Shown one piece after another: positions 5,060 through 63,186 of a DNA stretch of 64,000 nt. Source of the stretch: an uncultured Candidatus Saccharibacteria bacterium (GTDB taxonomy: Bacteria; Patescibacteriota; Minisyncoccia; Phycocordibacterales; UBA1006). The notes under the pieces are model-generated. The model was not told the origin of the DNA. It made no database searches and worked only from the letters and a program-made list of their open reading frames with translations. The translations under genes and the position numbers were made by a program. The DNA lies in NCBI GenBank assembly GCA_964350165.1, contig CAYGJA010000003.1:4233-68232 (forward strand), written 5' to 3'. How positions within the stretch are numbered: the first letter of the stretch is position 1; each line of letters starts with the position of its first letter.

Positions 5060-5065
5060 AAAATG

Positions 5066-10626: not shown

Positions 10627-10696
10627 TCGTGTAGATTTTAAACAAGCTGCTTACCCAAGCAGGGCACCCAGAGGGTGCCCTGCAAATGTAAATAGC

Positions 10697-11137: not shown

Positions 11138-11224
11138 AAATTTGATATTTGTGCGTTGAACACGAAGTTCAATATAAAAACTAATAATGCACTGATGTAA
11201 GTATACAATGCGTCACCCCCACGT

Positions 11225-11611: not shown

Positions 11612-11626
11612 CTAAATTAATATACC

Positions 11627-21965: not shown

Positions 21966-22187
21966 TTCTATGGGTCGAATTCAACATCACCTGATCACAT
22001 CCTTTGTTCGCCTTCTTACCATACACCATGTATGCACTTGTACACTATGCACACATGGATTTTTGCTTTTTTAACGATAAAAGCATCGGGCTGACGTTTC
22101 GCGTCATAACAGCCATCACGCTATTGCAACAGTGCAATAATCGACCGATTCGGCCTCAGTGAGCAAGCTCATCTGGGCTTTATATCG

Positions 22188-23637
<1,450 letters not shown>

Positions 23638-23867
23638 ACTGGAAGATGAACCATAAATGGTTCATCGTATAGTAAGAAGACGAACAAAAAATGTCATTCG
23701 CCAACTTAATCAAAATTAAACTGGATTGTTTAGACTCTCTCCGGCGAGAGAGTCTGTGATGCTGAATTGTCAAAGTCCTTCGCGACCCATTCGTATGGGG
23801 CAATTCAAAAGAAAAGACCCACTGCAATCAGTCGTGTGGCCAGTATATAGAGTTACAGAAATGTGTC

Positions 23868-47922: not shown

Positions 47923-48486
47923 CTAGAATATCTTGTCCCAGAGTGATGTTCCCCCAAGTGCAACGGTGGCAATAGACCAAACCAACAACATATTCCCAAG
48001 CAATAGCGGCGCAACCATTCGCCGAAACGGATATCCTAAAAAAGCCAATATAAACATCAAAACATCTCCCGGAAACGGAGTAAATCCGGTATAGATAATT
48101 ATGACGCCCTGAACCAGGATTTCTTTTTGCTTGTTCATTATTTTTCTAAATTTTTCGAGCCATGCTTGGATTTTTTCCGGTATAACCTGATGGCTACTTT
48201 GTCCAAAAGCATAAAAAACAAGATCGCCAATCAAAAGTGCTGGCCCACAGACCAACATCATAATCCCTATCGGCACCCCACCAATAGCAAGACCGCCAAT
48301 AACCGCAAAAAAAGAAGCAGATGTCACCGTGGAGACACCACCCAAGAGAGATACTAAAAAAGCCACCACCAAGCTATTCCGAACGCCCAAACGCCCTACA
48401 ACTTCGCTTGGTGATACAAATGAAAACAAAACCGTGATAGTAACAATCACGAGCAAAAACATCAGGAATTTTTTCTTAGAACTCAT
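47923..48486 (-). CDS. DedA/VTT-domain-like small membrane protein, tentative
   Basis: 187 aa, four or five TM helices; ...VIIIYTGFTPFPGDVLMFILAFLGYP... Weak resemblance only. Confidence 0.3.
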   Translation of the reverse strand: MSSKKKFLMFLLVIVTITVLFSFVSPSEVVGRLGVRNSLVVAFLVSLLGGVSTVTSASFFAVIGGLAIGGVPIGIMMLVCGPALLIGDLVFYAFGQSSHQVIPEKIQAWLEKFRKIMNKQKEILVQGVIIIYTGFTPFPGDVLMFILAFLGYPFRRMVAPLLLGNMLLVWSIATVALGGTSLWDKIF

Positions 48487-48517: not shown

Positions 48518-50434
48518 CTATATTTTATTTTTATACAAATCAACCGCATAATCACGCCACCAGGTACCAGCATTGGGTCCCCCATTACAGTACCCATCGG
48601 ATTCACCAGGGGTTTTGATCCAGAGATTAGCGTCGTGAGAACCAGCAAAAACAAATCCTGGCACTTCACCCAGACCTCTACCCCACGGGTTACACCACTC
48701 ATATACAGGGCTTTGCCCTTGACCGTTACGACTAGTGTCAACAACATACCCTTTTCCACCTAGCAACGCACTTAAATTGTCCCCGTATTTCTTTGTATCG
48801 ACAGTTCGAACATAGTTAGAAACGTTAAGAGCAAAGCCCCGAGCCATTTTAATGTTAACCAATTGCAATCTCTTTGACATCTCCTTGGCATCTACCCAAA
48901 ACGCATGTCCAGCATCAATATACACATAAGAATTATCAACCGTAGACAATGTCGTTACGGCATAATTAATTGCGTCAATTCTTCTTTGCTGAGAATCAGA
49001 ATCCAAACAATTAAGCATTGCGAGCGCGTCAGGTTCTACAATAAAAACGGCGTTTTCTGTTGTTGCCTGTTTTATCTGATCAATCCAAGAACGATACGCC
49101 TCATAAGAATTTGCCCCACCAGAGGAATACAGACCACAATCACGCTGAGGAATATTATAAAGAACAAACACCGGTATCACATTGTCTAATCGAGCAGCCA
49201 ACATTGCTCGCTCAATTAGCTTAAAATCATAAGAATTCCCGTTTAGCCAAGTTGATTGCGGTTGACTACTAATATAATTTAACGCACTCAGAACTTCGGA
49301 AGGAGCACCAGCCATGCGTGCTTGTCTCAAATCAGACTCTATGGCTGGTTTTTCAGCAAAATACAGACCAGAGACATTTCCCCAGTCCTCCAATTTTTTA
49401 GCGCTAGAAGCAAGAGGGGCGCTTTTTTTTACAGTATCAGACACGACAACCTCATCTTGATTCTGAGGGATGTCTGGTTGCAATATTCCACCTTGAGCCA
49501 AAATTCCCCCACTTTCTTGAACAGGATTTGTATTTTCACCAATATCAACCTGCCCATCAAGACCTTCAAGGATTACATCGTTGCCATTTTGACGACGAAA
49601 AGTTAGTTCAATCTGTGATAGGCGTTCTCCGGAAATATTTTCAAATATGAGAGTAATAGGATAGGGCCCTTCTCCCTTCCACCACCAGCCAGAAAAATTA
49701 ATTGACAAAATAGGGTTGCCAAATTCATCACGCTTGTTCACGATGTTTTCGTGTCCACCCTCAACACTCCAATACACATTAAAATCACGAGCATCTAGAT
49801 CGGCAATATCGACAAGCACGTCTTGTGTTATCCAGTCTTTTTTTTCTTGTGTTAGCCAGACAAGCCGTGCTTTCCCCTCCTTTGCACTACTAACACCGGC
49901 GACGATTGGCTTGGGTTTGTCTCCCTCCTCTCCTGTCAAGATATTTTTTGAGCGAGGCAGTTGAGCATTCGGTTCGGCTTGAACTTTTTTGGTTTCTGTA
50001 CTGATACTCACCAAATCTTGCTCAATGGTATAGACGACTCGGCGAGAACTGGCAACTTCGACGCCGTCTTGGTAAGCATGAAAAATAACTTCATACCGAT
50101 TGTCTTTTCTCCAATTCCAATCATCAACAACAACACTGTCCGTGTAGTTAATGCCGTCAAAACCAAGAACTCCGCTACGAACACCCCCATCCACAGACCA
50201 ACGAAATTCATCAGCGCCACTTTTTAATAGGGGTCGAACACGAAAGGTTTGAGTCCCTGACACATAGACATTATCCAAGGGCAAAACAATCCCGAGATCT
50301 TCTGATAAAAAATTACCACCAAGATCCGTCTCCACAGAGCCAAAGCGATAAATCGCCATAGTCAGCAGAAACAACAAAGAAAGCACTAGCACACTTTCCT
50401 TTACTAATTTTTTTGTAATTCTACCTATCTTCAT
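48518..50434 (-). CDS. Secreted glycoside hydrolase family 6 (cellulase/cellobiohydrolase-type) with ~300-aa N-terminal accessory region
   Basis: C-terminal half: ...VFVLYNIPQRDCG..., ...FIVEPDALAMLNC..., ...YIDAGHAFWV..., ...NVSNYV..., ...VDTSRNGQG..., ...LWIKTPGESDGYCNGGPNAGTWW... These match the GH6 blocks (YxIPxRDC, EPDSLAN, YxDAGHAGW, NVSNY, IDTSRNG, WIKxPGESDG). N-terminal signal anchor present. Confidence 0.8.
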   Translation of the reverse strand: MKIGRITKKLVKESVLVLSLLFLLTMAIYRFGSVETDLGGNFLSEDLGIVLPLDNVYVSGTQTFRVRPLLKSGADEFRWSVDGGVRSGVLGFDGINYTDSVVVDDWNWRKDNRYEVIFHAYQDGVEVASSRRVVYTIEQDLVSISTETKKVQAEPNAQLPRSKNILTGEEGDKPKPIVAGVSSAKEGKARLVWLTQEKKDWITQDVLVDIADLDARDFNVYWSVEGGHENIVNKRDEFGNPILSINFSGWWWKGEGPYPITLIFENISGERLSQIELTFRRQNGNDVILEGLDGQVDIGENTNPVQESGGILAQGGILQPDIPQNQDEVVVSDTVKKSAPLASSAKKLEDWGNVSGLYFAEKPAIESDLRQARMAGAPSEVLSALNYISSQPQSTWLNGNSYDFKLIERAMLAARLDNVIPVFVLYNIPQRDCGLYSSGGANSYEAYRSWIDQIKQATTENAVFIVEPDALAMLNCLDSDSQQRRIDAINYAVTTLSTVDNSYVYIDAGHAFWVDAKEMSKRLQLVNIKMARGFALNVSNYVRTVDTKKYGDNLSALLGGKGYVVDTSRNGQGQSPVYEWCNPWGRGLGEVPGFVFAGSHDANLWIKTPGESDGYCNGGPNAGTWWRDYAVDLYKNKI

Positions 50435-50474
50435 GAATATTACAGGATATCACATCAAAAACTAAATCTCGCCA

Positions 50475-51521
50475 CTACAAAAGTTCTGGGTTTTTAAGTT
50501 TTAACAAACCCCGCAAATCTTTTACCTTGTGAACAGAGTCCCGATGAACAATCAAAAGAGCATCTGGGGTTTCTACCACATAGATATCCTGAACACCAAC
50601 CACCGCAATATGTTTTGTGGCACCATGAGTCAACGTTCCCAAAGCATCAACATAAGTCACGTTAGCATTTTCACATACAAAATCTTTCTCTTTTGATGGA
50701 TTCTGCAATTCAAGTAACGAGCGCCAGTTGCCAACATCACTCCATCTCATTTCTGTTTTCACAACACTCTGCTCTTTTTTGTGAACGGTATACAAATCTT
50801 CAATCGAACCGCTAGGCATAGTTGAGAAAATCTTATCTATATCTGTTGTATCAACAGAATACAAACTCTCGACTTCTTCTAAAAAGTTTCGAGCCTTCAT
50901 TACCTTGTAACCAGTATTCCACAAATAGCGACCTGATTTTACAAATTTTTTAGCCTTACTGTATTTTGGTTTTTCTAAAAATTTTTTCACTCCGTACACA
51001 TCACCCAATCCTTTTCTCGTTATTTTTATGTATCCAAAACCTATCTCAGGATAATACGGTTTAGTTCCTACAGAAACAAGCTCTTCTGGGTTACGTTCAA
51101 CGCGGGAAAAAGCATTAATCAGGGCGTTTTCAAATAAGTCTTCATCAAAAATATAGTGGTCTGACCAGACAACAGCGACCTGCGCGTCAGGATTACGACG
51201 ATAAATATCTGATATTCCCAAAACAATCGCAGGAAAATTATCCTTACGCTCTGGCTCGATAATAATCCGGTCATTAGATACTAAGGGTAGCTGCTCGCGA
51301 ACATGTTCAGAAAAATCTTGATTGCAAACGGTAATCACTTTTTCACTTCCAACAAGACGAGAACAGCGACCCTCCATCAGCTGAAATAAGCTCTTGCTGT
51401 TATCAAAAATCTGATGAAACTGCTTAGGAAAGCACTCGCGAGACAAAGGCCAAAGCCGACTGCCTACACCACCCGCAACCAAGAGAATATACCGATCTTT
51501 GCTTTTATCTTTTGCGTCCAT
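50475..51521 (-). CDS. Sugar-1-phosphate nucleotidyltransferase (mannose-1-phosphate guanylyltransferase-like, ManC/CpsB family)
   Basis: ...YILLVAGGVGSRLWPLSRECFPKQF... N-terminal NTP_transferase motif; 348 aa. Confidence 0.7.
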   Translation of the reverse strand: MDAKDKSKDRYILLVAGGVGSRLWPLSRECFPKQFHQIFDNSKSLFQLMEGRCSRLVGSEKVITVCNQDFSEHVREQLPLVSNDRIIIEPERKDNFPAIVLGISDIYRRNPDAQVAVVWSDHYIFDEDLFENALINAFSRVERNPEELVSVGTKPYYPEIGFGYIKITRKGLGDVYGVKKFLEKPKYSKAKKFVKSGRYLWNTGYKVMKARNFLEEVESLYSVDTTDIDKIFSTMPSGSIEDLYTVHKKEQSVVKTEMRWSDVGNWRSLLELQNPSKEKDFVCENANVTYVDALGTLTHGATKHIAVVGVQDIYVVETPDALLIVHRDSVHKVKDLRGLLKLKNPELL

Positions 51522-51522
51522 A

Positions 51523-54198
51523 CTACTTCAGTGCCCCTTCTTTCCACAGATTAGGTAAATTACCATTAAAAAGAGCGAGGCCCAACCAAGACCAATTGTT
51601 GGTGTAATAGTTAGCGTCTCCATCTCCCCAGTAAGCTATTTCCAATTCGTCGTCGACAGTGAATTGTTGAGTAAACCGAGTATCATACATCTCAGAAACC
51701 AGCTCCGGATCACCAGAAAACTTTAAGCCAGATATTATTCCAGCCTCCACGGCAGAAGAAGAATAACTAACCTGAGATATCCCGCTCAAGCCATAAATAG
51801 CTGAAAAACGACCACGACGAGACCATTCTCTTTCCCAAAAAGCAGTGTATCTATCCAAATAAGTAATGGCAGCGTCACTGCCGAACCACTCTGCGTCCAA
51901 GCCAACTCTCCAGAACACCCGAAAAGCGTCAAAACCAAAAGCGTCTGCTCCACCGCCGCTTGAAGCATATCGGCTAGCGCTCTCCAACACGCCATTGTTT
52001 GCGTTTACCATAATCCAATTTGGAGGCAAACCAGGATTCGCACCCCCCTGTATTCGCAAACGGTTAAGCACTGAGTAAGTATCTTCAGCTAACGCCAACC
52101 ACTTATGATCAGTTTTTTTGTCAAACTCAGCAAAAATGCGGTAGTGCCCCGGAGAAAAGTATGAAGGGTTAACTAAATACCAGTCACCTCTTGTTGCGGA
52201 CTTTTTCTCTGTAGCTAACAAATAATAATTACCTCGCACAGACACCACAGACTGCTCCCAAATGGCATCCAAAAGATCTTGTGCGTCTTCGTAATAAGCA
52301 GGATTATCAAATATCTTTCCGGCAAAAATAAGAGCCAGTGCTGCATCTAGATCGGCGTCTATAGCAGGATTAGAGTCGACCTGCTTACCGTCTCGCCATT
52401 GCCAAGAAAGCAAATTGTCTTGAACACGGTGTTGCAAATGGTCCTGTGTCCATAACCAAATACCATCAAAAGCATCTTCGTCCGCCATGACCACCGCCCG
52501 AAGCATTGCATACGCCTGCCCTTCAGATGTAGTATTTCTCGTGTCAGGGTCAATAACTTGGCCATAATCAAAAATAAAATTTTGCTTATAATAATTCCAA
52601 GCAAATTGAAGCTGGGTCTCTGTGGTTCCGTTTATTTTATAAATAGCGGCCCAGTCTCCATTCGTACTACGAAAATCTTGAATATCAAGATAGGCAGTAC
52701 TTCCTTCCGTCCATTTTATAAGCGGTCTTGAGTTTCTAATAGCATCTCGCACCACAGGCAAATCATTCACTTCGGATTGATAAATCATTTCGTGAGACAA
52801 AAACACATAATCAAGGTTCCTCCAGTCATTTTTATATTTTTCAAACCGAATCTCTGGGTCAAGGGCAATCTTGAAATACCAGTCGGCATTATCAAAAACC
52901 TTATCATTTACATAATCTGGATTATGTAATTCGGTGAGTGCATAAACATCAGTCATAATAGCGGCATTTTTCGGCAAATTCTCTTTTACCCACCGAATGG
53001 CTGCAACCTGATTTCTGGTTTCGTTCTTTGTAAGGTATTTAGGTATGTGTTTTGGGTAATACCCAACCAAAACCACCAAAAGAGGAAGTCCTACGAACAA
53101 AACCTTTACCCAATGAGGCCAGCGAATAATCAAACTATTCTCCTCTAACCATTTAATAAGTGAGACTGCGGTTATCACGGCAAAGGGAACTAGTGGCAAA
53201 ATATAAAAGCCGATTACCACCCCTCCCCGAATTAAGAAGTAAAAATAAAACAGAGTCGAAAGAGCTATAAAACGATATTTTCTTGAGGCGCACGCCAAGA
53301 ATATTGCCGAAAGCACACAAATCCCCAAAAAATAGACATATAATTTATCGAGCAACATCCACGAACCCAAATTATCAACAAAAGAACTGGCCGGGTGCCA
53401 AAAAGGCACCTCGGTACCTCGAGAGGCCTGATATTGAGTGGAGCCAATAAGACTCACTCTTCCTGAATTTGGAAAAAATTCTGTTTTTATCAGTGCGTAG
53501 ATAAACCACAGACTAAGAACAGAGCCCGAGATAGCTAGCCAACCAAATATTCTAAAGTTCTTTTTTATCGGCCAATGAGATGTTACTACTTTCCACAAAA
53601 GAGGTGGGCCAAACATTACAGAAGTGACTTTGGTTACAACCGCAAATCCAAAAACGAGACCACTTGAGAGCACGCTACTTAGGTTCATTTTGGGCCGATG
53701 AAGTAGTGCCGTGGAAATCAAGAGCCAAGTCACCATAATATTGTCGAGAAGGATACGTCTTTGAAAATAAACTGTCACTGGTGAAATAGTGAAGAGTAAG
53801 CCAGCCAAAAGCGCTAGCCAGCGAGATCCGGTTATTTTTTTGGCTAGATACACCACCAACCAAAGTTGCACCAAATGCAACACCAACATAAAAGCTCGAC
53901 CCGTGTTCAGAGAATTACCAAAAGTATTCCAATCTCCTCCAATCAAATCAACCCAGGCTCCCAGCACATACCAACCAAAGGGAGGGTGGTCGTACCAATA
54001 CGTATAAGGCGTCAATTCTCCAGTGCTTTCTACTGACCAAGCCTGTGACATATAAGTACCCTCGTCACTTTCATAGTAAGGATACGCAAACATGTTGTAA
54101 CCATGAAGAAACAAGGCCAATCCAAACAAAAACACAGTTGCCACCTGATAACCGTTTTTGTTAAAAAAATTCTTTATTTTTAAAAAAATATGTTTCAT
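51523..54198 (-). CDS. Fusion protein: N-terminal GT39/PMT-type (polyprenol-phosphate-sugar dependent) membrane glycosyltransferase domain plus C-terminal GH8-like (BcsZ-type endoglucanase) domain
   Basis: N-terminal ~450 aa are polytopic with ...AYPYYESDEGTYMSQAW... (DE motif in first loop) and ...YTYWYDHPPFGWY... (PMT/ArnT-like HPP). C-terminal ~450 aa have ...DPDTRNTTSEGQAYAMLRAV... and ...IDADLDAALALIFAG..., matching GH8 SEGQxYGM and ASDADLxxAxAL blocks. Confidence 0.6.
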   Translation of the reverse strand: MKHIFLKIKNFFNKNGYQVATVFLFGLALFLHGYNMFAYPYYESDEGTYMSQAWSVESTGELTPYTYWYDHPPFGWYVLGAWVDLIGGDWNTFGNSLNTGRAFMLVLHLVQLWLVVYLAKKITGSRWLALLAGLLFTISPVTVYFQRRILLDNIMVTWLLISTALLHRPKMNLSSVLSSGLVFGFAVVTKVTSVMFGPPLLWKVVTSHWPIKKNFRIFGWLAISGSVLSLWFIYALIKTEFFPNSGRVSLIGSTQYQASRGTEVPFWHPASSFVDNLGSWMLLDKLYVYFLGICVLSAIFLACASRKYRFIALSTLFYFYFLIRGGVVIGFYILPLVPFAVITAVSLIKWLEENSLIIRWPHWVKVLFVGLPLLVVLVGYYPKHIPKYLTKNETRNQVAAIRWVKENLPKNAAIMTDVYALTELHNPDYVNDKVFDNADWYFKIALDPEIRFEKYKNDWRNLDYVFLSHEMIYQSEVNDLPVVRDAIRNSRPLIKWTEGSTAYLDIQDFRSTNGDWAAIYKINGTTETQLQFAWNYYKQNFIFDYGQVIDPDTRNTTSEGQAYAMLRAVVMADEDAFDGIWLWTQDHLQHRVQDNLLSWQWRDGKQVDSNPAIDADLDAALALIFAGKIFDNPAYYEDAQDLLDAIWEQSVVSVRGNYYLLATEKKSATRGDWYLVNPSYFSPGHYRIFAEFDKKTDHKWLALAEDTYSVLNRLRIQGGANPGLPPNWIMVNANNGVLESASRYASSGGGADAFGFDAFRVFWRVGLDAEWFGSDAAITYLDRYTAFWEREWSRRGRFSAIYGLSGISQVSYSSSAVEAGIISGLKFSGDPELVSEMYDTRFTQQFTVDDELEIAYWGDGDANYYTNNWSWLGLALFNGNLPNLWKEGALK

Positions 54199-54202
54199 GA
54201 TC

Positions 54203-56401
54203 TTATTGTGCGGTTTGTGTTTCTCTTGCCAAAACATCTACACCGCTACCAGCATCAACCCTGTGATTATTTAAGTGCTCAGTCTTCTCCCAAGAAGTAT
54301 TATTTTTTAGGTTGCGGTACATGGCCCTGATACCTGCAAAAGCCAAGAGTATGGTGTAGGGATAAAAAGAAAGAACAATAAAAGGTATTCTTAGCCAAGG
54401 AAAAGGTTTATTGTATTCCTGCGTAAACTCATATAACCCCAAAAGCTGAACCACCACAAAGATTAAAAACAATATCAAAGGAATGTTTGATAGCACTGCG
54501 ACAGTGGGAGGCAGGTCAACCATAAACATGGTTGCAATACCAAAAGGAAGCACCATAAAAAGAACCAGCAAGGTGAATGGCCAGCTTAGCACATAGAGAG
54601 CCAAAAGCTTTTGGCGCAAAGTAGGAAAACGAAGCCAAACGCCTCGACTAATAATTTGAAGAAATCCTTGTGCCCACCTTGTTCGTTGCTTCACGAAACT
54701 CCACAACGAAGGAGGTGTCTCTTCCTGAGTTGCATGTTCTGCGTCGTAAACAACACCAATCCTTGCCCCAGCCTGAGACAAACGAATTCCGACATCTGCA
54801 TCTTCGGTAAGACAAGAGTTGTCCCAGCCACCAACATGGTTCAGCCAGCTTCTCTTGAAAAAAACCGTAACCCCTCCAAGCGTAGTCACTCCCTGGTTTG
54901 CAAAATAATGCAGAGAGGACTTAAACCAAAAATAATATTCCAGTACATTAAACAATGAATACCAACGATAATCATAATTCATCAACTGAACACCAGACTG
55001 CACCACATCCAGATTTCTTTGAATCATTTCCGTATTTATAATATGGAATAATTCAGTATGAGGCTCATCTTCAGCATCAAAAATCACGACCACATCGCCT
55101 CGTGATTCTTTGAGTGCGTGATTAAGCCCATGAGGCTTGTTAACGGGAGCGACATCATACGTAACCAATCGCAGATTTGACTTCCCAATAGTGTCAATCG
55201 TTTCGCGAACAATACCGATTGTTCCATCATCAGTACCCTCATGGATTACCACAATTACCTCGAACATATGCTCAGGGTAACTCATGGAGCTTAGTGTTTT
55301 TAGCGTATCGGCAATTGCATATCGCTCATGTTTACAAGGAACAATTGCGGTAAATGAAAATTCAGGAGTAACGTATTGCTTCGGAGAAGTGTGCACGGCC
55401 CCGTCTTCTCCCTCGGCATCCATCCAAGAGAAGATCATGAGATACAGAGCAAAAAGGCCTTGCAAGATAATAAAGGAGTACGCCAGTACAAGAATAAAAT
55501 AACCAGTGTCCTTGACTGAGACAAAATCAGTCACTACCGCCAAAGAAACAAATATCCCTAATAATACCAAAAAATACCTGTTCGCATTTCGAAATCCAGA
55601 TACAACAAATGGTCTTACCAACAAAAAAGAAACTAGCCCTCCCACGAACACAGACACGATATATTGCATCATTGTCCCTTGAAAGAAATGTTGCTGCATC
55701 CAAAATATAGAAAAAGCCACCAAAACAGACCAGACTATTGACAAGGATAGTGGGGTCATATTTTTTTTCTTCTGACTATTGGAGAAAATCCAATCAGAAG
55801 CAGTTATGGAGAGAATAAATGTCAAAAACAACACTAGCAATATACCTTCAAAAGCAAAGAAACCAGAGTTCTTTGCACCAAAAAAAACCTCTAAATAATG
55901 AGCGGCGGCGGTCAAAGCAGTAAGAAAGAGGACCAAAAAAAAGTGCTTGAGTAAAGGGTTCCCAAAAGAGGTTTTTCTAAAAATTGTGGCTATATCAGAA
56001 ATGAAACGTAGCCCCTGGCCAGCACTAGCCTTGCTTTCTTCATTTTCGCGCGACATAAAAGTAAAAGGAATATCCTGAACTCTTAAGCCCTCCTCTCTAA
56101 CCAACAACTCCACAAGAATTTTAAAACCATAAGACCCAAAAGTTATTTTCTCCAAAATATTTGCCCGAAAAGCAAAGAAACCAGTCATAGGATCAGTTGT
56201 TTTTTGGGTTCCAGGCAACACAGCCCATACGAACCAAGTAGCAACTCTAGAAACAATCCTGCGATACCGACTAGACAGACCATCGGCACTACCCCCCTTT
56301 GTATAGCGACTAGCTATCACAAGGTCTCGCTCCCCTCTTCTTAATACATTCAGAAGATCTACTATTTTTCCGGAGGATGTTGAAGATCCGTATCCATGCA
56401 A
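54203..56401 (-). CDS. Dual-domain GT2 membrane glycosyltransferase, main frame: C-terminal part of a DPM1-like GT2, TM region, then a processive QxxRW-type GT2 (cellulose/chitin/hyaluronan-synthase-like)
   Basis: ...IVDLLNVLRRGERDLVIASRY...GFFAFRANIL... (DPM1-like C-terminal half); second domain FTAIVPCKHERYAIADTL...VVIFDAEDEP (DxD)...LTEDADVG (TED)...VKQRTRWAQGFLQI (QxxRW). The N-terminal half of the first GT2 lies in a different frame at 56362-56697. Confidence 0.65.
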   Translation of the reverse strand: MHGYGSSTSSGKIVDLLNVLRRGERDLVIASRYTKGGSADGLSSRYRRIVSRVATWFVWAVLPGTQKTTDPMTGFFAFRANILEKITFGSYGFKILVELLVREEGLRVQDIPFTFMSRENEESKASAGQGLRFISDIATIFRKTSFGNPLLKHFFLVLFLTALTAAAHYLEVFFGAKNSGFFAFEGILLVLFLTFILSITASDWIFSNSQKKKNMTPLSLSIVWSVLVAFSIFWMQQHFFQGTMMQYIVSVFVGGLVSFLLVRPFVVSGFRNANRYFLVLLGIFVSLAVVTDFVSVKDTGYFILVLAYSFIILQGLFALYLMIFSWMDAEGEDGAVHTSPKQYVTPEFSFTAIVPCKHERYAIADTLKTLSSMSYPEHMFEVIVVIHEGTDDGTIGIVRETIDTIGKSNLRLVTYDVAPVNKPHGLNHALKESRGDVVVIFDAEDEPHTELFHIINTEMIQRNLDVVQSGVQLMNYDYRWYSLFNVLEYYFWFKSSLHYFANQGVTTLGGVTVFFKRSWLNHVGGWDNSCLTEDADVGIRLSQAGARIGVVYDAEHATQEETPPSLWSFVKQRTRWAQGFLQIISRGVWLRFPTLRQKLLALYVLSWPFTLLVLFMVLPFGIATMFMVDLPPTVAVLSNIPLILFLIFVVVQLLGLYEFTQEYNKPFPWLRIPFIVLSFYPYTILLAFAGIRAMYRNLKNNTSWEKTEHLNNHRVDAGSGVDVLARETQTAQ

Positions 56402-56697
56402 ACGATAAATTCGCCCTTTGCTTGTGCGAAGCCTGCCTGAAAAGCCCTAGTAAGACCAGTTTTTGCTTCTTTTCCTTCTCGTTTTAGCAAACTAATATTG
56501 GGACATAGTCGTTGTTGCTCTCGAATAATATCGGCGGTATCATCAAAACTATCGTCAACAAAAAGATATTCTGCTTCTAAATTATTTTGAGCAACAACAG
56601 TCTGTAACCGTTGCACCAAAGGCCGTATGTTTGCCGACTCGTTAAAAGTAGGCAAAACAATCGATATTTCTGGCCTTGAACGCAAAAATTTTGACAT
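56362..56697 (-). pseudogene. N-terminal half of the DPM1-like GT2 domain, separated from 54203-56401 by a -1/+2 frameshift at an A5 homopolymer (~56375)
   Basis: MSKFLRSRPEISIVLPTFNESANIRPLVQRL...EYLFVDDSFDDTADIIRE...GEFIVCMDTDLQHPPEK* ; the next frame continues ...KIVDLLNVL... Inserting one A restores ...HPPEKIVDLLNVL..., the expected GT2 sequence. Confidence 0.6.
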
Positions 56698-56702
56698 GAA
56701 CC

Positions 56703-58532
56703 TTAAGCTTTAGCTTTTAAGTCCTGATCAACAAGAGCCGCCATTTTTTTTCCTTCTTCAACCGCGTAATTAGTTCCCCTATCATCGGGAAATATTTGAG
56801 AGAAATTAGCAAGATATACGCCCGGGATAACACTTCGATAAGGTGGAATCTTTTTTTCATAATCAACATCAACGATATGCTGAGCGTTTCTTAATCTAAA
56901 TATTTTTTGAGCAGTAATATCATTCTTGGTGAAATCGGGAAAGAGTGCTTGAGCACCCTCTACCCACAAATCAGTAAGCTCCTCATCCGTCATAGAGAAA
57001 TACTTATGATCATGAGGAACATACGCACCAATATAATAAACATGTTTACCGTCTAAGTTTTCTGGACCAATCAACGCTGACAAACTAAGTAAAACAAGGA
57101 AAGGATGGTTGATGTCATTTATATTGTGCCAATAGTATTTTGTTAGAGGTCGGTCTGTCATAAAAACCATGGTAACGGCGCCTATGTAGTCAATACTGTT
57201 GTATTTTGCTTTCTGCAAACCACTGATTCTGGAATCACCTTCGAGTAATTTTGAAAAAATATGAGTAGGCACCGTGGCGACACAAGCATCATAAACAGAT
57301 TCCCCTGATCCCACTTCTTGCAAATAAATCTTTCCATTGTGTTCTTTTATTCCTTCTAGAGTCACCTCTGTGCGGATCTGAACGCCCATTGCCCTGCACT
57401 GATCAGCCAGAGCGTCAGTAAAGTTGTGCCAACCGCCAAGAAAATAACCGAGTTTTTCCGTTACGTCTCCCTTGTCTTTAGAGTTTGCCCGGACATGAAC
57501 GCGAGACCAGACATAGGACATTGCGATTTTGTCAAAATAATTGAAAAATTTACCCTTCAGGATTGGTTCCCAGATAACACGAGTCACTTTTTCGCCACCC
57601 CATCTCATCATCCATTTGTAGGCAGAAATTTTTGCAAATCCTCTCCATTTTTTTACCTTACCCAAATACAATGCAATTACACCAGCGCGAATGCGGTCAA
57701 AAAGAGAAAGGGGCTTGAATCGAAGCAGATCCATTGGAGTCATGAAAGGATACAAAACACCATCGTAATACAAAGACAGTGAGCTTTGAAAGAATTTTAG
57801 GCGATCAGCAACCCCTAGTTCTTTTGCTAAATCAATAATATGGTGGTCTGTTTTGTAAATAAAGTGATACGCCTTCTCCAGAGCAACGCCCTCAAGCTCA
57901 AAATCAGCAACTAAGCCGCCCACATCAGACGATCGTTCAATGATATCTACTCTGTAGCCTTTTTTTGCTAACTGATAAGCAGTAACCAGACCAGTGAAGC
58001 CGGCACCAACCACGGCAATTTTTTGCGCTGATTCGCCTGACGCCAAACCATCAGAGAAAGAATCTATTGGTGGGGCCGTCTTGATTGGCACAGCTGATTC
58101 GGAGGGCTTTTTTTTGTTAAATTTTTTAAATGTAATGTTTGCGTTCAGCAGATATTGAATAAGAACGATTGGTGGCAAAGATATGATTTTAGCAATGTTT
58201 CCATTCATATCATGACCAGAGGTAAGCTGGTGAATAATTAAAGCACTCAATGCCAACCCCAAGAAGCTAACCCCCAAAAAAAGCCCCATCCTAGCCGCAA
58301 GCATGTCTTTTACACGAAAATTATGGAAAGCATTAAGAATAAAACTATAGATAGTCGCCATACCTACAGACACCACCGTGGCTAGTGTGGGATCAAAATT
58401 CAAATGGGTATACAAAACATAAAAAGCAACCACATCAAGCAGGGCGGCACTCCCACCAATAACACCGTACATGAGTACCTGTCGATATTTTTTAATCATT
58501 TTTTTGGCAAATATAAACAACATATAAAACAA
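56703..58532 (-). CDS. GtrA-like membrane domain fused to FAD/NAD(P)-binding oxidoreductase (amine-oxidase/protoporphyrinogen-oxidase-like fold)
   Basis: N-terminal ...YRQVLMYGVIGGSAALLDVVAFYVLYTHLNFDPTLATVVSVGMATIYSFILNAFHNF (GtrA family); then ...KIAVVGAGFTGLVTAYQLAKKGYRVDIIERSSDVGGL (dinucleotide-binding GxGxxG...E...GG). Confidence 0.55.
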   Translation of the reverse strand: MFYMLFIFAKKMIKKYRQVLMYGVIGGSAALLDVVAFYVLYTHLNFDPTLATVVSVGMATIYSFILNAFHNFRVKDMLAARMGLFLGVSFLGLALSALIIHQLTSGHDMNGNIAKIISLPPIVLIQYLLNANITFKKFNKKKPSESAVPIKTAPPIDSFSDGLASGESAQKIAVVGAGFTGLVTAYQLAKKGYRVDIIERSSDVGGLVADFELEGVALEKAYHFIYKTDHHIIDLAKELGVADRLKFFQSSLSLYYDGVLYPFMTPMDLLRFKPLSLFDRIRAGVIALYLGKVKKWRGFAKISAYKWMMRWGGEKVTRVIWEPILKGKFFNYFDKIAMSYVWSRVHVRANSKDKGDVTEKLGYFLGGWHNFTDALADQCRAMGVQIRTEVTLEGIKEHNGKIYLQEVGSGESVYDACVATVPTHIFSKLLEGDSRISGLQKAKYNSIDYIGAVTMVFMTDRPLTKYYWHNINDINHPFLVLLSLSALIGPENLDGKHVYYIGAYVPHDHKYFSMTDEELTDLWVEGAQALFPDFTKNDITAQKIFRLRNAQHIVDVDYEKKIPPYRSVIPGVYLANFSQIFPDDRGTNYAVEEGKKMAALVDQDLKAKA

Positions 58533-58619
58533 ACAACCGCTCCTTTCGCGGACACAAAAAGCTAATCTAACGAGAGAGGTCTTATGTCGGCTGGATTATG
58601 TAAGAAAAAAGAACCAAAG

Positions 58620-59375
58620 TCAACGTTTCTTGTTTTTCTTGCCAAAAAATTCTTTCGCTTCTTCTAGATGCTCGTGCGTACCGATATCAAACCATGCGCC
58701 TTTGATAGGATAAGCATAGATACTTGCGCCGGCATTAACTAAATAACTAATAGACTCCCCCGCATTCATTTCCTTCTCTGATTCCCAGGCTACATAGGCA
58801 TTATGTAAATGAGGAAGATGATCGGAATGAATGAGGTACGTCATAATCCCCACCAAATCAGAAGGAGGGACCTCTGGCTTCTCAACAAAATGAGTCACTT
58901 TCCCGAACTCATCTACACCAGCGACTCCACATCGACGACAAATCTCAATCGGGCTTTTTTTAGTTGCGATAACTGATTGCTGTTTTTCCTGGAATAAGGC
59001 CAACATGTCAGCAAAAGAATCTTCAAAAATACCATCTCCGGCAGAAATAAGCACATGATCCTCATCTCCCGCCTCACGAAGCCCCAAAATGAAATCACCC
59101 ACGGCGCCCAAGCGATTTTCGTTGCTTGTCGTCTTGTCATTAAGAACTACAATTTCAAAAGTGTATTTTTGATTCTCGGCCCATTGAACAAAATCGAGAT
59201 AAAATCGATCATTAGACACAAGGACCACCTTGTCAAAAACACCTAGGACTTCGAGTTTGTCCAAAAAATGAGCAAGGATTTCTTTGTCTCCCACCTCAAG
59301 CAAAGCCTTAGCTTTGTTCTCTGTCAAAGGATGTAGTCTCGTAGCGTATCCTGCAACTGGAATTATGGCTTTCAT
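58620..59375 (-). CDS. Sugar-1-phosphate nucleotidyltransferase (glucose-1-phosphate thymidylyl/uridylyl-transferase-like)
   Basis: MKAIIPVAGYATRLHPLTENKAKALLEVGDKEIL... canonical NTP_transferase N-terminus. Confidence 0.7.
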   Translation of the reverse strand: MKAIIPVAGYATRLHPLTENKAKALLEVGDKEILAHFLDKLEVLGVFDKVVLVSNDRFYLDFVQWAENQKYTFEIVVLNDKTTSNENRLGAVGDFILGLREAGDEDHVLISAGDGIFEDSFADMLALFQEKQQSVIATKKSPIEICRRCGVAGVDEFGKVTHFVEKPEVPPSDLVGIMTYLIHSDHLPHLHNAYVAWESEKEMNAGESISYLVNAGASIYAYPIKGAWFDIGTHEHLEEAKEFFGKKNKKR

Positions 59376-60106
59376 AATTCATTTTGATTAGTGAATATTC
59401 CTTTCATTTTTTCCAGAGTGTCTTCTGGATCTAGAACGGATACGGTATCAATAACGCCCACAACCGCCTCATCATTTCCTCCAGGAAACAACGCGTCTCC
59501 AAAATAAATACATTCTCTGCGATCCCAGCCCTTATGATTAATATAATCAGAAATATTACTACCCTTATTGCGACCCTTTATGGTGTAATCAAAACCAGTT
59601 GTGCCAGCAATTCTAATCTCAACCAAATCACTTTCAAAAGGAACGACTTTCAGTGCTTGTATTCTTTTTGAAAAATCAGGATCAAAAGAAAGCTTTAATT
59701 CCTGATGGTTATTAGAACCAATAACACTGTAGTTAACCTGACAGCCACGATTGTCGTAGTAAATCAAATCCGAGACTTCTTGATGCCCAAAGTAAGTACG
59801 CAAACGATTCACATGCTCGATAATGTCTCGTTCTGCCTCGCTAGAAAGTTCATGTTGCCACAAAGAACACTCATTTCCACATTGCGCCATTAACTCACAA
59901 TCCAAATCTTGCAACTGATATTTCATCTGCTCACGTTTTGCACCAGAAATAACCACCAATTTTCTGTCTTTCAGAAAGTCCACCATGGGTTTCAGTACTC
60001 TGGTTTTTGATTCAGCTAGTGTGCCATCCATGTCTGCAAATATGTATTTCTTAGAAAATGACCCGGTTTCACTGACCATATGCCCGAGATTATACACACG
60101 GGACAA
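59372..60106 (-). CDS. HAD-IIB hydrolase, eukaryotic-type phosphomannomutase (PMM)-like
   Basis: ...KKYIFADMDGTLAESK... (DxDGT motif I), ...VVISGAKREQM..., ...GDALFPGGNDE... (motif IV). Confidence 0.55.
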   Translation of the reverse strand: MSRVYNLGHMVSETGSFSKKYIFADMDGTLAESKTRVLKPMVDFLKDRKLVVISGAKREQMKYQLQDLDCELMAQCGNECSLWQHELSSEAERDIIEHVNRLRTYFGHQEVSDLIYYDNRGCQVNYSVIGSNNHQELKLSFDPDFSKRIQALKVVPFESDLVEIRIAGTTGFDYTIKGRNKGSNISDYINHKGWDRRECIYFGDALFPGGNDEAVVGVIDTVSVLDPEDTLEKMKGIFTNQNEL

Positions 60107-60120: not shown

Positions 60121-61437
60121 TTATCTATTTCTTTCTTTGTAAAAAAGCAACAAAAAAAAGACAGCTCCTAGGGGTAACAACAGCCGCCAAAAAACACACC
60201 ACAACCCCAACAGGGCGATTGTAGCCAGAGCAACCAAAGACAAAATTACAAAGCTTTTTAGAAACACACTTTTTTTCCTTGTCTCTGCGACAGGACTCTG
60301 ACGATACCAAATCAAATGATTAACAAGAGATAGGAACAACGTCAGAACAAATACAAACCAAACCGTGGGCCAACAAGATGGCTTTTTGCTTTTTACTAAT
60401 GACAAAACTTCTGAATTTTGCTGAGAATTGGCACCCACACCTTGTTCCCCACTCGTGCTGGTTCCAGCAACTTCTCCAGGCGGAAGACTTTCGCTAAAAA
60501 ACAAATCCTGCACGGCTTTTTTTATAAAACCTGTACCGCTTGGTGTTTGACCGCGAAAATCACTTGCCCCCAACACCAATCCATCAGAAATCTGACCGGT
60601 CTCGTTTAAAACAAAAACATATTCTGGACTTGTGGTGAGCTGGCCATTAGACGAGGCCACTCGGTAACGATACTCCCCAGGAGAAAGATTAGCCAAAATC
60701 AATTCATGCGCAGTAACCAAAGCATCCTGATTGAGACCAAGAGGATACCCCAAAAGAGGTTGTCCGATATCTAGGACAAACGGACCATCTTCCACAGGGC
60801 CATACACAATTCCGGAATTCGAAGGAAGATTCGTTGTCCAGCCAATAGTGACATCAAAACCAGTCGAAGTAGCGGTAATATTCCGGACTCCTTCTCCAGA
60901 AATTTGAAGCGTCTGCGCCAAAAAACCACTAGCACCACCACTACCCACCGAGCCAGTTGGCGTAGTAATAATTGTTTCCCCTTCGGAGTTCTCTGTCACA
61001 AAACCAATCCACAAATCAAACTGCACTCTTCCACCCTGAGCATCATTGGCCAAATCAGTTTTCATTTCTGCGGCAAAATCATACCTCGTGGTGTCTCCCG
61101 CCCCCAAAACAAGCAAGGGGGCAAAATCTATTCGTTGCAAATCATCGAGACTTCCCGACCAAACAAGACTTGAATTTTGATAGACCAAAATATTAAGACC
61201 AACCAGCATATCCTTCGAATCAGAAATAACGTTCTGCACCCCTAGAACAACCTGTTGCGGTTCGTTTGTGTAATTGGCAACCTCGGCAAACCTATCTTCG
61301 ACTTTGTTCCCTGGACGATAATTTGTCTCATTAAAAAGTGGATCGGGAGAAAAAAGCACCCCAATATTGGCCGCTCCAACAACGCTTGGCAACAGAAGCA
61401 AAAGCAAAACTATTCCAATATTCCTAAATTTCCTCAT
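60121..61437 (-). CDS. Hypothetical secreted protein with C-terminal TM helices
   Basis: Signal peptide MRKFRNIGIVLLLLLLPSVVGAAN (Met at 61437; the track ORF extends upstream across the neighbour's stop); C-terminal hydrophobic segments; no motif recognised. Confidence 0.4.
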   Translation of the reverse strand: MRKFRNIGIVLLLLLLPSVVGAANIGVLFSPDPLFNETNYRPGNKVEDRFAEVANYTNEPQQVVLGVQNVISDSKDMLVGLNILVYQNSSLVWSGSLDDLQRIDFAPLLVLGAGDTTRYDFAAEMKTDLANDAQGGRVQFDLWIGFVTENSEGETIITTPTGSVGSGGASGFLAQTLQISGEGVRNITATSTGFDVTIGWTTNLPSNSGIVYGPVEDGPFVLDIGQPLLGYPLGLNQDALVTAHELILANLSPGEYRYRVASSNGQLTTSPEYVFVLNETGQISDGLVLGASDFRGQTPSGTGFIKKAVQDLFFSESLPPGEVAGTSTSGEQGVGANSQQNSEVLSLVKSKKPSCWPTVWFVFVLTLFLSLVNHLIWYRQSPVAETRKKSVFLKSFVILSLVALATIALLGLWCVFWRLLLPLGAVFFLLLFYKERNR

Positions 61438-62605
61438 TAGTTTGTTCTGGTTCTGGCAATTGATTTGGTTGTCCTGGGGTTCTGGCCGTAGGCACCCATT
61501 GCGACGACCCATCAGGGAATCTACCTTCGCTGGTTTCGTCAGTGGCTTCGGCATAAGTCCATTGGTCAACGACCGTCAATCCATCAGGAAGATACAAAGT
61601 CACCGTATCGCCGTTATTATTATTCAAGCGGTCCCCGACCACAAAGACTAGAACCACAAATTCGCCTGGTCCAACTTCGGTCCCCTGATTCAGAGTATAC
61701 AGTTCGGCGTTATCTTCAGAAAAATCTCTAATAGTGTAATAAGCGGTGGAAGACCCTCTGATTTCAGATAATTGCCAACCGTCAATATCGACAATCTCGG
61801 AGCCCGTATTATAGACCTCTACCCACTCTTTTCCTTGCAGGGGTACGATGTTGCCAATAATCGCGTCGGCAGCTATTTCGTTCAAAATAATATCAGCATA
61901 CGAAGATTGACTGGCCTCGGTATCATCTCCCTCGTCATTTTGATCTTGATCTTCTTGGTCTTGGTCTTGGTCTTGGTCTTGGTCTTGGTCTTCATTTTGA
62001 TTATCGTCCTCTTCTTGTTCTTCTGGGTCAACATCCTCTTCTTCATCACCAAAGCCATTCGTTGCCAAAGAAAACGGAGCAATCTCTTTATCAAAAAAAC
62101 CAGCTCCATAGCCCTCAGCCACAGCAAAGGCTTTGACTACAATTTTGGCATCACAGACACCTGAATTTAACGAGATATTATCACCAACAAGGTATTCAAA
62201 ATCCCAAATCGCTTCGCCACCATCGACATAAGAAACGGCAGAAAAAGTGTTCATGTCAGAACTGACAACCTCATTGCCGTTCTGATAAGCAGTTATCAAT
62301 ATCTGGCCGCACAAATCACTGGCCTCTATTGGGACTATTTCTATCTGGTAAGCAAAAGTAGCCCGACCAACCACCAAACTAGTGTCGATAATTAATTGAT
62401 GACTGGTATTAAATCCTGGTTGTATATTCGAGGCAATCCCAGCGTCTGACCAAGCAGACAAAGCGACGTTTATGTCTATTGCCCCAGCTGTCCAAAGATT
62501 AATTTGACCTTGTTCGTTATCTTGGAATGAGGCCAGAGCAGTGCCCGAAAATGCCAGAAAGCCAGCCACCAGAATCATTATTCGTATCAAAAATGCCTTC
62601 ATCAT
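61424..62605 (-). CDS. Secreted protein with acidic (DQ)n/E-rich linker and C-terminal lamin-tail domain (LTD)
   Basis: Signal peptide MMKAFLIRIMILVAGFLAFSGTALA; linker EEEDVDPEEQEEDDNQNEDQDQDQDQDQDQEDQDQNDEGDD; C-terminal ...GKEWVEVYNTGSEIVDIDGWQLSEIRGSSTAYYTI...GPGEFVVLV...NNNGDTVTLYLPDGLTVVDQWTY matches LTD (EwIELyN.g...vdLsGW.L.d...). Confidence 0.6.
   Translation of the reverse strand: MMKAFLIRIMILVAGFLAFSGTALASFQDNEQGQINLWTAGAIDINVALSAWSDAGIASNIQPGFNTSHQLIIDTSLVVGRATFAYQIEIVPIEASDLCGQILITAYQNGNEVVSSDMNTFSAVSYVDGGEAIWDFEYLVGDNISLNSGVCDAKIVVKAFAVAEGYGAGFFDKEIAPFSLATNGFGDEEEDVDPEEQEEDDNQNEDQDQDQDQDQDQEDQDQNDEGDDTEASQSSYADIILNEIAADAIIGNIVPLQGKEWVEVYNTGSEIVDIDGWQLSEIRGSSTAYYTIRDFSEDNAELYTLNQGTEVGPGEFVVLVFVVGDRLNNNNGDTVTLYLPDGLTVVDQWTYAEATDETSEGRFPDGSSQWVPTARTPGQPNQLPEPEQTNEEI
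61954..61992. repeat. Hexanucleotide microsatellite (CTTGGT)x6 on the plus strand, encoding the (DQ)n tract of the LTD protein
   Basis: cttggtcttggtcttggtcttggtcttggtcttggtctt; in-frame tandem repeat. Confidence 0.9.
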
Positions 62606-63108
62606 GTCTTTTTTTGTTTTTTAACAGCATTGCGTATTTTTCTGAATTCTTCGGCAACCACCAACACAAAAGGAATCCCCACCAATACCACAAAACCCCA
62701 GCGAGTTTTGGCCATGGATAACAAATATCCTACACCAGGAGCAACAGCTACGACCTTACCAAGCACATCTGTTCTTAAAATAGGCTGTTCGTCTGGGCTT
62801 TTATTTGCATCACCCTGAGTAACATAGGCGATTTGTCCAGCCACAATTTGATCACCAACAATACGGTGAGTAGTAGGCAGGGCTTCTTTTCCCCGTTCAT
62901 AAAAAGTAATAATGTCACCGATTTGATACTGTTCGGCGGCGTGAACAATCACCGCACTTCCGGTCTGAATCGCTGGCTCCATGGAACCCGAAGTCACCAC
63001 CATCGTCTGGTAGCCCAAAACAGGAAAAAGATTGGCCAACACCATCAGTAACAGGCCCGCAAAAACAAGCCCAAACACTCCGTAAAAAATTTTAAATAAA
63101 ATCTTCAT
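62602..63108 (-). CDS. Signal peptidase I, SipW/archaeal-type (S26)
   Basis: ...MVVTSGSMEPAIQTGSAVIV... (catalytic Ser box), ...YVTQGDANKSPD...; 168 aa with N-terminal anchor. Confidence 0.75.
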   Translation of the reverse strand: MKILFKIFYGVFGLVFAGLLLMVLANLFPVLGYQTMVVTSGSMEPAIQTGSAVIVHAAEQYQIGDIITFYERGKEALPTTHRIVGDQIVAGQIAYVTQGDANKSPDEQPILRTDVLGKVVAVAPGVGYLLSMAKTRWGFVVLVGIPFVLVVAEEFRKIRNAVKKQKKT

Positions 63109-63186
63109 AATTTTTCACTCGAACAAATCCGAGCAAGCCCCACCGGGCGACAATGTCACGCCGGTGTTCGCTTGCCAAGATTCTAG

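Follow-up and report, generated by a model that had tools for sequence, protein, structure and literature searches.

A tightly packed run of minus-strand genes in the genome of an uncultured Candidatus Saccharibacteria bacterium (contig CAYGJA010000003.1) encodes what we tentatively read, with somewhat less than even confidence, as one integrated envelope-glycan machine for a synthase-dependent, cellulose-like polymer, which a GT-C-fold glycosyltransferase, using a polyprenyl-phosphate sugar, modifies or handles extracellularly. The run extends from 60106 to 48518 of a 64,000-nucleotide stretch of this contig (the window), with intergenic gaps of −4 to 87 nucleotides (nt). It contains eight open reading frames (ORFs) representing seven genes (Table 1), one gene being split by a −1 frameshift, and not the nine consecutive genes counted in a previous reading made from the letters of the DNA alone (the sequence-only reading). 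Domains were assigned by Pfam and NCBIfam profile searches of the locus proteins, together with PDB sequence matches, Foldseek, AlphaFold2 (AF2) models and hhalign. All of the domains named in the sequence-only reading were found where it had placed them, with Pfam scores far beyond chance, and it had read the parts and their biochemistry correctly: GDP-mannose supply, an enzyme resembling DPM1 and other dolichyl-phosphate mannose synthases (DPMS), a GT-C transferase, a processive family 2 glycosyltransferase (GT2), GH8, GH6 and GtrA. Its division of these parts into two coherent and separable pathways, protein O-mannosylation and a cellulose-like beta-glucan synthase, is not borne out. Related loci and related proteins carry L and P numbers below; L002 is a second assembly (Logan) of this same organism.

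The two proposed routes are joined by fusion and by gene order. The DPMS-like domain is fused to the processive synthase, and the GT-C domain is fused to GH8. A pattern scan found a relative in at least 581 GTDB species genomes, and taxonomy, identity and neighbourhood are given for the best 80 loci of these hits. They belong to Patescibacteria (the closest in Kaiserbacteria, 56%), Chloroflexota, Dormibacterota and cultured Actinomycetota, the last with the culturable genera Frigoribacterium, Microbacterium, Curtobacterium, Plantibacter and Arthrobacter as well as Mycolicibacterium hodleri. In 73 of the 75 loci whose upstream sequence is long enough, the GT-C gene is immediately preceded, in the same orientation, by a homologue of the synthase, recognised by its QRTRW motif (43/43 in the candidate phyla radiation (CPR), 7/9 in Chloroflexota, 22/22 in Actinomycetota and 1/1 in Dormibacterota). 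An ORF with K-QRTRW-NQG ends within 400 nt of GT-C in 67/82 loci, and most of the others are truncated contigs. Minimal loci (L005) have the synthase and the GT-C/GH8 gene alone. All-against-all clustering of the ORFs from the 82 loci yielded no further widely conserved partner past GT2 and GT-C; most of the other clusters are antisense shadow ORFs in high-GC genomes. As each fusion combines one component of the "mannosylation" route with one of the "cellulose" route, and as the synthase-GT-C pair is near-invariant across four phyla, the evidence speaks against two separable pathways.

The GT-C/GH8 protein, which probably starts at the ATG at 54198 and is then 891 amino acids (aa) long, comprises an ArnT/PMT_2-type GT-C domain (aa 1 to ~420), a small alpha/beta domain and a GH8 domain (aa ~540–904). 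Its AF2 model has a pLDDT of 92.8 and a pTM of 0.86. The GT-C domain matches Pfam PMT_2 (37.7 bits, 3e-9) and lies just above the cut-off for PMT itself (PF02366, 24.3 bits against 22.7, 2.7e-5). It has no Pfam match to PMT_4TMC, and a MIR domain is absent from it. A profile of 27 GT-C domains matched nothing in the PDB at E ≤ 1, including the solved Pmt1/Pmt2 and ArnT. Compared directly with E. coli ArnT by hhalign, the profile gave a probability of 86%, a likeness about equal to the PMT Pfam score, and the invariant ESDEGTY was placed on PDETRY of ArnT, so that the D58-E59 loop motif aligns with the ArnT DE motif. All 63 sequences compared (63/63) keep D58, E59, R160, D165, K203 and E253, and the domain looks catalytically active by this conservation. 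The GT39/PMT label of the sequence-only reading therefore stands as far as the PMT-type loop-1 DE motif and the marginal PF02366 match go, and fails on GT39 specificity. On these comparisons the GT-C is a distinct ArnT/PMT_2-type enzyme, not demonstrably GT39. Of the reassignments that the sequence-only reading had named as its own refutation, half have thus come about: the GT39 label relaxes to a generic GT-C, and the calls of GH8 and GH6 described below are firm. Six relatives of the GT-C (P0086, P0091, P0097, P0103, P0108 and P0111) carry DUF4388 (PF14332), which in P0091, the sole one scanned, is N-terminal (aa 11–156).

The specific analogy to protein O-mannosylation in Actinobacteria is likewise weak. 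Actinobacterial and eukaryotic systems (Ppm1/DPM1 plus Pmt, GT39) share with the locus the supply of GDP-mannose, a DPMS-like enzyme and the loop-1 DE motif, whereas the GT-C here was found no nearer to PMT than to ArnT, and it is partnered in the genome by a polymer synthase. A pair of independent pathways within one operon, protein O-mannosylation (phosphomannomutase (PMM), ManC, DPM1-like enzyme, GtrA and a Pmt-like GT-C) and a cellulose-like exopolysaccharide (GT2, GH8 and GH6), would account for the presence of all parts for each route and for the PMT score, and the secreted proteins and SipW-type signal peptidase encoded just upstream could be the targets of mannosylation. We consider this arrangement unlikely, as unrelated pathways would not stay so linked across four phyla with both fusions mixing the routes, the Pmt-specific features are missing, and L092, the closest relative, does not share the genes for secreted proteins upstream.

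The GH8 domain matches PF01270 with 132 bits (cut-off 24, 2.7e-38, aa 546–789) and scores 119 bits with the NCBIfam BcsZ model NF008305, under its cut-off of 299. Its nearest relatives by PDB sequence match are CMCax (1.6e-23) and BcsZ, on which its (alpha/alpha)6 fold superposes with TM-scores of 0.80–0.85 (Foldseek; 1WZZ, 3QXF). The catalytic acid E572 (TSEGQ) and base D770 (YDAIRV region) are both present, and the BcsZ-like assignment held. In the family, E572 is kept in 56/63 and D770 in 51/63 sequences. Since the GT-C residues never vary, whereas the GH8 acid is missing from 7/63 sequences and the base from 12/63, the transferase chemistry is the obligatory part. Beside cutting, the GH8 domain may partly serve as a glycan-binding module. 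In L056 (9983–12409) the N-terminal domain of GH3 is fused to GT-C instead of GH8 (Pfam), and in L047 (~11501–12184) a GH3-like stretch, seen by tblastn only, follows GT-C at fusion distance; GH3 in place of GH8 looks like a swap of hydrolase domains on a constant transferase. The GT-C/GH8 fusion forms more than 80 full-length clusters at 90% identity, mostly from CPR, with "glycosyl hydrolase family 8" as the best annotation. Together with the number of GTDB genomes, this contradicts the earlier view that such a locus would be unusual for a CPR-type genome. Fusion is found in 41/49 CPR loci, and GH8 is a separate downstream gene in 16/22 actinobacterial loci; the order in Frigoribacterium L063 is GT2, GT-C, DUF4397, GH8, DPM1-like. 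The DUF4397 protein between the GT-C and GH8 genes (L063, 11869–12822) occurs in 12 other actinobacterial loci (Microbacteriaceae, Arthrobacter, Nocardioides). In L008, tandem GT-C/GH8 paralogues (8467–11103, 878 aa; 11112–13778, 888 aa) follow one DPMS-synthase gene.

The synthase GT2 matches Pfam Glyco_tranf_2_3 (1e-32) and Glyco_trans_2_3 (5e-27), and its best PDB sequence match is BcsA (3e-9), with the DxD (here DAE), TED and QxxRW motifs aligned. It contains FDAEDE441, LTEDAD at aa 531–536 (TED532), QRTRWAQG from aa 572 and a C-terminal WEKTEH. TED and QRTRW align with TED and QRGRW of BcsA, and QRTRW is conserved in 67 neighbouring orthologues, as expected from the processive QxxRW GT2 of the sequence-only reading. 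FDAEDEPH aligns with FDADHVP of BcsA, so that DAE replaces DAD and the His is shifted, and TTLGGVTVFF stands where BcsA has FFCGS. An alignment shows an invariant W-E-K-T-x-H after the last transmembrane (TM) helix, which bears some resemblance to the gating-loop motif (FxVTxK) listed in PMC11022532. Scores with the NCBIfam equivalogs are 44 bits for CelA (TIGR03030, cut-off 699) and 77 bits for PgaC_IcaA (cut-off 422). PilZ and BcsB, the partners whose search the sequence-only reading had proposed, had no Pfam match in any of the ten proteins scanned.

The DPMS-like half was examined in an intact homologue, P0242, whose AF2 model has a pLDDT of 86. Its N-terminal half with the first four TM helices matches Pyrococcus furiosus DPMS (5MLZ, 9EP0; E 1e-17, 28–30% identity), a fold match that takes in the TM domain and that confirms the DPM1-like call, and it also matches GtrB and ArnC. 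The C-terminal half matches BcsA and hyaluronan synthases (HAS) (all by Foldseek). The two halves form one intact ORF in L007 (855 aa), L008 (705 aa) and L092 (820 aa), and the fusion occurs in more than 100 protein clusters of 680–890 aa, some with a recognisable GtrA/DPMS TM domain. Stand-alone synthases of ~420 aa without the DPMS domain also occur in relatives.

This fusion would suit the hand-off of a primer from a polyprenyl-phosphate-sugar synthase with a lipid-binding TM domain to a processive synthase. The DPMS domain would then make a polyprenyl-phosphate-hexose primer, the fused GT2 would elongate a lipid-linked beta-glucan, and GT-C would transfer the chain to an envelope acceptor or GH8 would release it, in a manner resembling synthase-dependent O-antigen assembly (WbbF then ligase). 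That GT-C is near-invariably the next gene, with an invariant catalytic motif, and that minimal loci hold these two genes alone, agrees with such a scheme. We judge it improbable, however, since many synthases of the family lack the DPMS domain, ArnT/PMT-type GT-Cs use monosaccharide donors, and GtrA flippases accompany DPMS in several loci, which fits a monosaccharide being flipped on its lipid carrier, as happens in classical three-component systems. Matthysse 1995 and Peng 2002, according to the summary in PMC8892547, proposed that cellulose synthases use lipid-linked primers. Those synthases of the BcsA and HAS type whose structures are solved work without a lipid primer (PMC8892547). If lipid priming were true, it would revive a largely abandoned, decades-old proposal of lipid-linked intermediates and would be a new route of envelope-polymer attachment in CPR, Chloroflexota and Actinomycetota.

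In the genome studied here, the DPMS-synthase gene is split into ORFs of 111 aa and 732 aa. At the break, ccg gaa aaa TAG continues in the −1 frame as ...K IVDLL, and when read through as PPEK/IVDLL, both pieces align end to end with intact orthologues of 820–855 aa, and gap-free with those of L007 (855 aa) and L008 (705 aa). The 111-aa piece matches Pfam Glycos_transf_2 (4.9e-18, profile positions 1–94 of 168) and aligns to the N-terminus of the intact orthologues. The same break is found in the independent Logan assembly (L002) and in the NCBI gene call (P0241). L092 has gaa-tca-att-cca at the site. Because the gene is intact in L092, L007 and L008, the break is not a conserved recoding site, and programmed frameshifting was rejected. 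The frameshift is a one-base loss in a homopolymer A run, either real or a sequencing error that both assemblies share. A real frameshift would leave this organism without a functional DPMS half, and the synthase half could still be translated.

The fusion of GtrA to a flavin adenine dinucleotide (FAD) oxidoreductase was confirmed by Pfam for both domains: a four-TM GtrA domain (PF04138, 56 bits, cut-off 26, 5e-15, aa 22–135) and an Amino_oxidase domain (1e-28, aa ~170–605) of the amine-oxidase/PPOX/CrtI superfamily. The flavoenzyme belongs to a large, unnamed family (NCBIfam PRK07233, "hypothetical protein", 444 bits, cut-off 252), and we found no close solved structure for it. About 25 clusters are fused to GtrA and many are stand-alone. 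In L090, an unfused trio of GtrA, flavoenzyme and DPM1-like genes precedes the synthase-GT-C/GH8 pair. An unrelated 1.6-Mb contig (L087, 5603–11465) encodes GtrA, a flavoenzyme of the PRK07233 family and a DPM1-like GT2 that has a GtrA/DPMS TM domain, and two genes further downstream comes a GT87-type GT-C. The position of this second trio beside a GT87 GT-C indicates that the flavoenzyme belongs to a portable polyprenyl-phosphate-sugar module. A carotenoid-glycoside role for the CrtI-like enzyme was dropped, as its gene keeps company with those for GtrA and DPM1-like proteins next to GT-C enzymes. GtrA proteins usually have four TM helices, and from this topology the fused flavoenzyme should be cytoplasmic, where we infer that it acts on the polyprenyl-phosphate sugar or its lipid before flipping. 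Mycobacterial DprE1/DprE2-Rv3789 likewise combines a GtrA-family protein with an FAD enzyme in a pathway that makes a polyprenyl-phosphate-sugar donor for GT-C. The analogy is functional only: DprE1 is a vanillyl-alcohol-oxidase-type flavoenzyme, whereas the enzyme here is amine-oxidase/PPOX/CrtI-like, and no reductase partner was identified for it. The PRK07233 flavoenzyme linked to GtrA thus probably has polyprenyl-phosphate sugars as its substrates.

The sugar-nucleotide genes provide for two donors. The haloacid dehalogenase (HAD) gene matches Pfam Hydrolase_3 (3e-7) and exceeds the cut-off of NCBIfam HAD-SF-IIB (47.9 bits), and the PMM model gives 21.4 bits, under its cut-off. Its best solved relative is the alpha-phosphoglucomutase of Lactococcus lactis (4BND, 1.7e-17, compared with ~1e-5 for PMM2), so that the PMM-like HAD of the sequence-only reading is of the HAD phosphohexomutase type but nearer to the Lactococcus enzyme than to PMM2. 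It would supply a hexose-1-phosphate. L092 has at this position a 229-aa ORF with no Pfam match, a possible counterpart by position. The HAD gene overlaps by 4 nt the gene of a nucleotidyltransferase with a match to Pfam NTP_transferase (1.2e-31) and with NCBIfam matches to AglF, RmlA-long and GalU, all under cut-off; the best PDB matches of this enzyme are glucose-1-phosphate thymidylyltransferases. Most simply, the mutase and the adjacent nucleotidyltransferase supply nucleoside diphosphate (NDP)-glucose for the synthase. ManC, which is kept at the same position in L092, has the NTP_transferase (3.6e-34) and ManC_GMP_beta-helix (4.6e-11) domains and matches TIGR01479 with 229 bits over profile positions 5–348 of 467; it is the GMP domain alone, with no phosphomannose isomerase cupin, and supplies GDP-mannose. 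Both nucleotidyltransferases and the GDP-mannose supply had thus been read correctly.

The GH6 protein has an N-terminal TM helix followed by an extracellular stretch of ~350 aa outside known families and a catalytic domain at aa 383–636 (PF01341, 184 bits, 7.6e-54, Pfam aa 383–619). Its best solved relative is Cel6/CelA1 of Mycobacterium tuberculosis (1UOZ, 1.8e-65). The catalytic motifs RDCG430 and EPDALAM467 are intact, with their Asp residues present, and the GH6 call likewise held. Within aa 35–370 (~340 aa without family match; window region 48518–49540), two similar segments are seen by eye (FRWSVDGG and VYWSVEGG), and this extracellular part may be a binding domain in repeated form. 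The loci in which GH6 is found with the module are L007, L011, L019, L026, L036, L040 and L092. GH6 and GH8 are classical cellulase families and CPR genomes often encode glycoside hydrolases, so that the locus might be imagined as catabolic, with GH6, GH8 and GH3 breaking down cellulose or other beta-glycans of the host or the surroundings and with transferases that are unrelated envelope enzymes. This is very unlikely: GH8 is covalently fused to a transferase of 12–13 TM helices, and its nearest relatives, BcsZ and CMCax, are biosynthesis-associated; GH6 is membrane-anchored and not secreted with carbohydrate-binding modules; genes for sugar-nucleotide synthesis flank the hydrolases; and a sugar transporter or downstream catabolic genes are absent from the locus.

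Three known systems resemble the locus in part. The proteobacterial Bcs system (BcsA-BcsB-BcsZ-BcsC) shares the TED and QxxRW motifs and the BcsZ-like GH8, but here PilZ, BcsB and BcsC are lacking, GH8 is fused to GT-C and the synthase core is of HAS/NodC size (~400 aa). The CslA synthase of Streptomyces has as partners the GlxA radical copper oxidase and CslZ, a membrane-tethered GH6 glucanase (PMC11022532, PMC9040799). In common with the locus, it is a system of a monoderm with a cellulose-synthase-like GT2 and a membrane-tethered GH6, without BcsB, BcsC and (here) PilZ; this likeness concerns the partner genes and type of system. The window has no GlxA, and the GT-C/GH8 fusion occupies the partner position. 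The descriptions of CslA that we consulted mention no GT-C partner, DPMS fusion, GtrA or flavoenzyme. A GlxA-like copper oxidase was, however, found beside the GT2-GT-C pair in four of the examined loci (L083, L079, L069 and L066), which links the module to CslA-GlxA. These loci, from Saccharibacteria, Nakamurella and Frankia, have no GH8; their GlxA-like protein is of the galactose-oxidase/glyoxal-oxidase type with Kelch and GO-like E-set domains, and in L083 (12126–14705, minus strand) it carries CBM4_9. GH5 occurs in L003 (Nitrolancea) and L055.

The third resemblance is to three-component lipid-sugar systems (GtrA/GtrB/GtrC, CsbB/GtcA/YfhO, GacI/GacL and ArnC/ArnT), all three parts of which are present here: a synthase of the DPMS/GtrB/ArnC fold, a GtrA-family protein and an ArnT/PMT_2-type GT-C with the DE motif. 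In the locus the synthase part is fused to a processive synthase, GT-C to a glycoside hydrolase and GtrA to a flavoenzyme. The known targets of three-component systems are O-antigen, teichoic acids, rhamnan and lipid A, and we know of no synthase-dependent exopolysaccharide that is modified by one.

In the integrated machine that we tentatively favour, the BcsA/HAS-type GT2 would polymerise and extrude a beta-1,4-glucan from the NDP-glucose that the neighbouring mutase and nucleotidyltransferase provide. The DPMS-like domain would load a sugar onto polyprenyl phosphate on the cytoplasmic side, most likely mannose from the GDP-mannose of ManC, and the GtrA-flavoenzyme would flip this lipid-linked sugar and probably modify it chemically. 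GT-C, encoded just downstream of the synthase, would transfer the sugar outside the membrane. The nascent polymer is the most likely acceptor because the GH8 fused to GT-C would hold and trim the emerging glucan, and the outcome would be a glycosylated, cellulose-like polymer. The anchored GH6 would process the chain further, as CslZ and BcsZ are thought to do. The varied beta-glycan accessories of the module (GH8, GH3, GH5, GH6 and GlxA-like) point to a beta-1,4-glucan, and by analogy with the GT-C decoration systems GtrABC, CsbB/YfhO and GacI/GacL (PMC11194591, together with general background), the product could well be such a glucan with alpha-linked side sugars, although we put this at a little under an even chance.

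Several points weigh against this scheme. The GH8, GH6, GH5 and GH3 families all have non-glucanase members. Chitosanases, xylanases and licheninases also belong to GH8, and PssZ, a GH8 enzyme of Listeria, cleaves a polymer of ManNAc. Xylan or chitin is the substrate of some GH6 enzymes (PMC9040799). The synthase is far under every NCBIfam equivalog cut-off, has DAE in place of DxD and is without PilZ, a BcsB partner and FFCGS. ManC could feed the synthase directly, and not the DPMS domain, for a mannan or glucomannan. For the acceptor of GT-C, the fusion and gene order provide evidence of an indirect kind. About half of the loci have a DPM1-like gene within 10 kb and the other half do not, and most are without GtrA and the flavoenzyme. 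In the genome studied here, the DPMS domain is frameshifted, and because this half is broken, the decoration branch may be inactive in it.

L092 has the same order of seven genes, with 61–71% aa identity for the three proteins compared. The CPR-type fused module also occurs, at 31–42% identity to the window protein, on metagenome-assembled contigs labelled "uncultured Gammaproteobacteria", "Bdellovibrionales" and "Pseudomonadales" (L015, L016–L018, L021, L022, L031–L033, L044, L046 and L047), and on a Sulfurimonas-labelled contig (P0166, L089); these taxonomic labels look unreliable.

Table 1. Genes and other features of the glycan locus, in order of transcription, with coordinates in the window.
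Feature	Position	Strand	Basis and remarks
HAD-IIB phosphohexomutase	59372..60106	-	alpha-phosphoglucomutase / eukaryotic-PMM type; Pfam, NCBIfam and PDB match
Sugar-1-phosphate nucleotidyltransferase	58620..59375	-	glucose-1-phosphate thymidylyl/uridylyl-transferase-like; Pfam NTP_transferase
GtrA domain fused to FAD oxidoreductase	56703..58532	-	Pfam GtrA_DPMS_TM and Amino_oxidase
DPMS-like GT2, N-terminal 111 aa	56362..56697	-	Pfam Glycos_transf_2; stops at TAG made by the frameshift
A5 run, −1 frameshift site	56365..56369	-	splits the DPMS-synthase gene
Remaining DPMS-like half, ~six TM helices and BcsA/HAS-type GT2 synthase (732 aa)	54203..56401	-	Pfam, PDB, motifs
GT-C, small alpha/beta domain and GH8	51523..54237	-	Pfam, NCBIfam, AF2, Foldseek, hhalign
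ManC mannose-1-phosphate guanylyltransferase	50475..51521	-	Pfam and TIGR01479
Membrane-anchored GH6 glucanase	48518..50434	-	Pfam GH6; Cel6 PDB match
Polytopic membrane protein of 187 aa, without family	47923..48486	-	31 nt downstream of GH6

The 187-aa protein downstream of GH6 had no Pfam or NCBIfam match and was found among the related loci only in L002; L092 has a VIT1 gene at the same position, and membership of this protein in the system is doubtful. Upstream of the locus, a SipW/archaeal-type signal peptidase I (62602–63108; TIGR02228, 99 bits) has as neighbours on its two sides three proteins without family that are secreted or anchored (60121–63960, minus strand), one of which has a long acidic D/Q/E repeat (61424–62605). 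This region could be a SipW-dependent surface-fibre locus, and in L092 its genes are not conserved beside the glycan locus. Elsewhere within the window the locus genes have no paralogues, and a scan for promoters and terminators was uninformative (33 promoter-like sites against 30.7 expected). The window also contains four tRNA genes (within 4749–6884) and a complete 16S rRNA gene (22187–23644, minus strand; Rfam, 1375 bits). No 23S or 5S match was obtained in the Rfam scan of the window, and the rRNA genes appear unlinked here.

Cellulose biosynthesis in monoderm bacteria is poorly understood. Synthesis of cellulose in vitro by the CslA-GlxA complex was not shown before 2024 (PMC11022532), and for the cellulose of mycobacteria there is no known synthase (PMC8892547). 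The module of a QRTRW synthase and GT-C, with or without GH8, GH3, GH5, GH6, GlxA, DPMS and GtrA-flavoenzyme, is widespread in hundreds of CPR, Chloroflexota and Actinomycetota genomes and apparently undescribed, as our literature search found no published description of it. Decoration of the nascent glucan by GT-C, if it takes place, would add a third natural modification of cellulose to phosphoethanolamine and acetyl groups, and would make this polymer the first example of a synthase-dependent exopolysaccharide with a three-component lipid-sugar system at its service. CPR bacteria live attached to host cells, and for them the locus nominates a major surface glycan.

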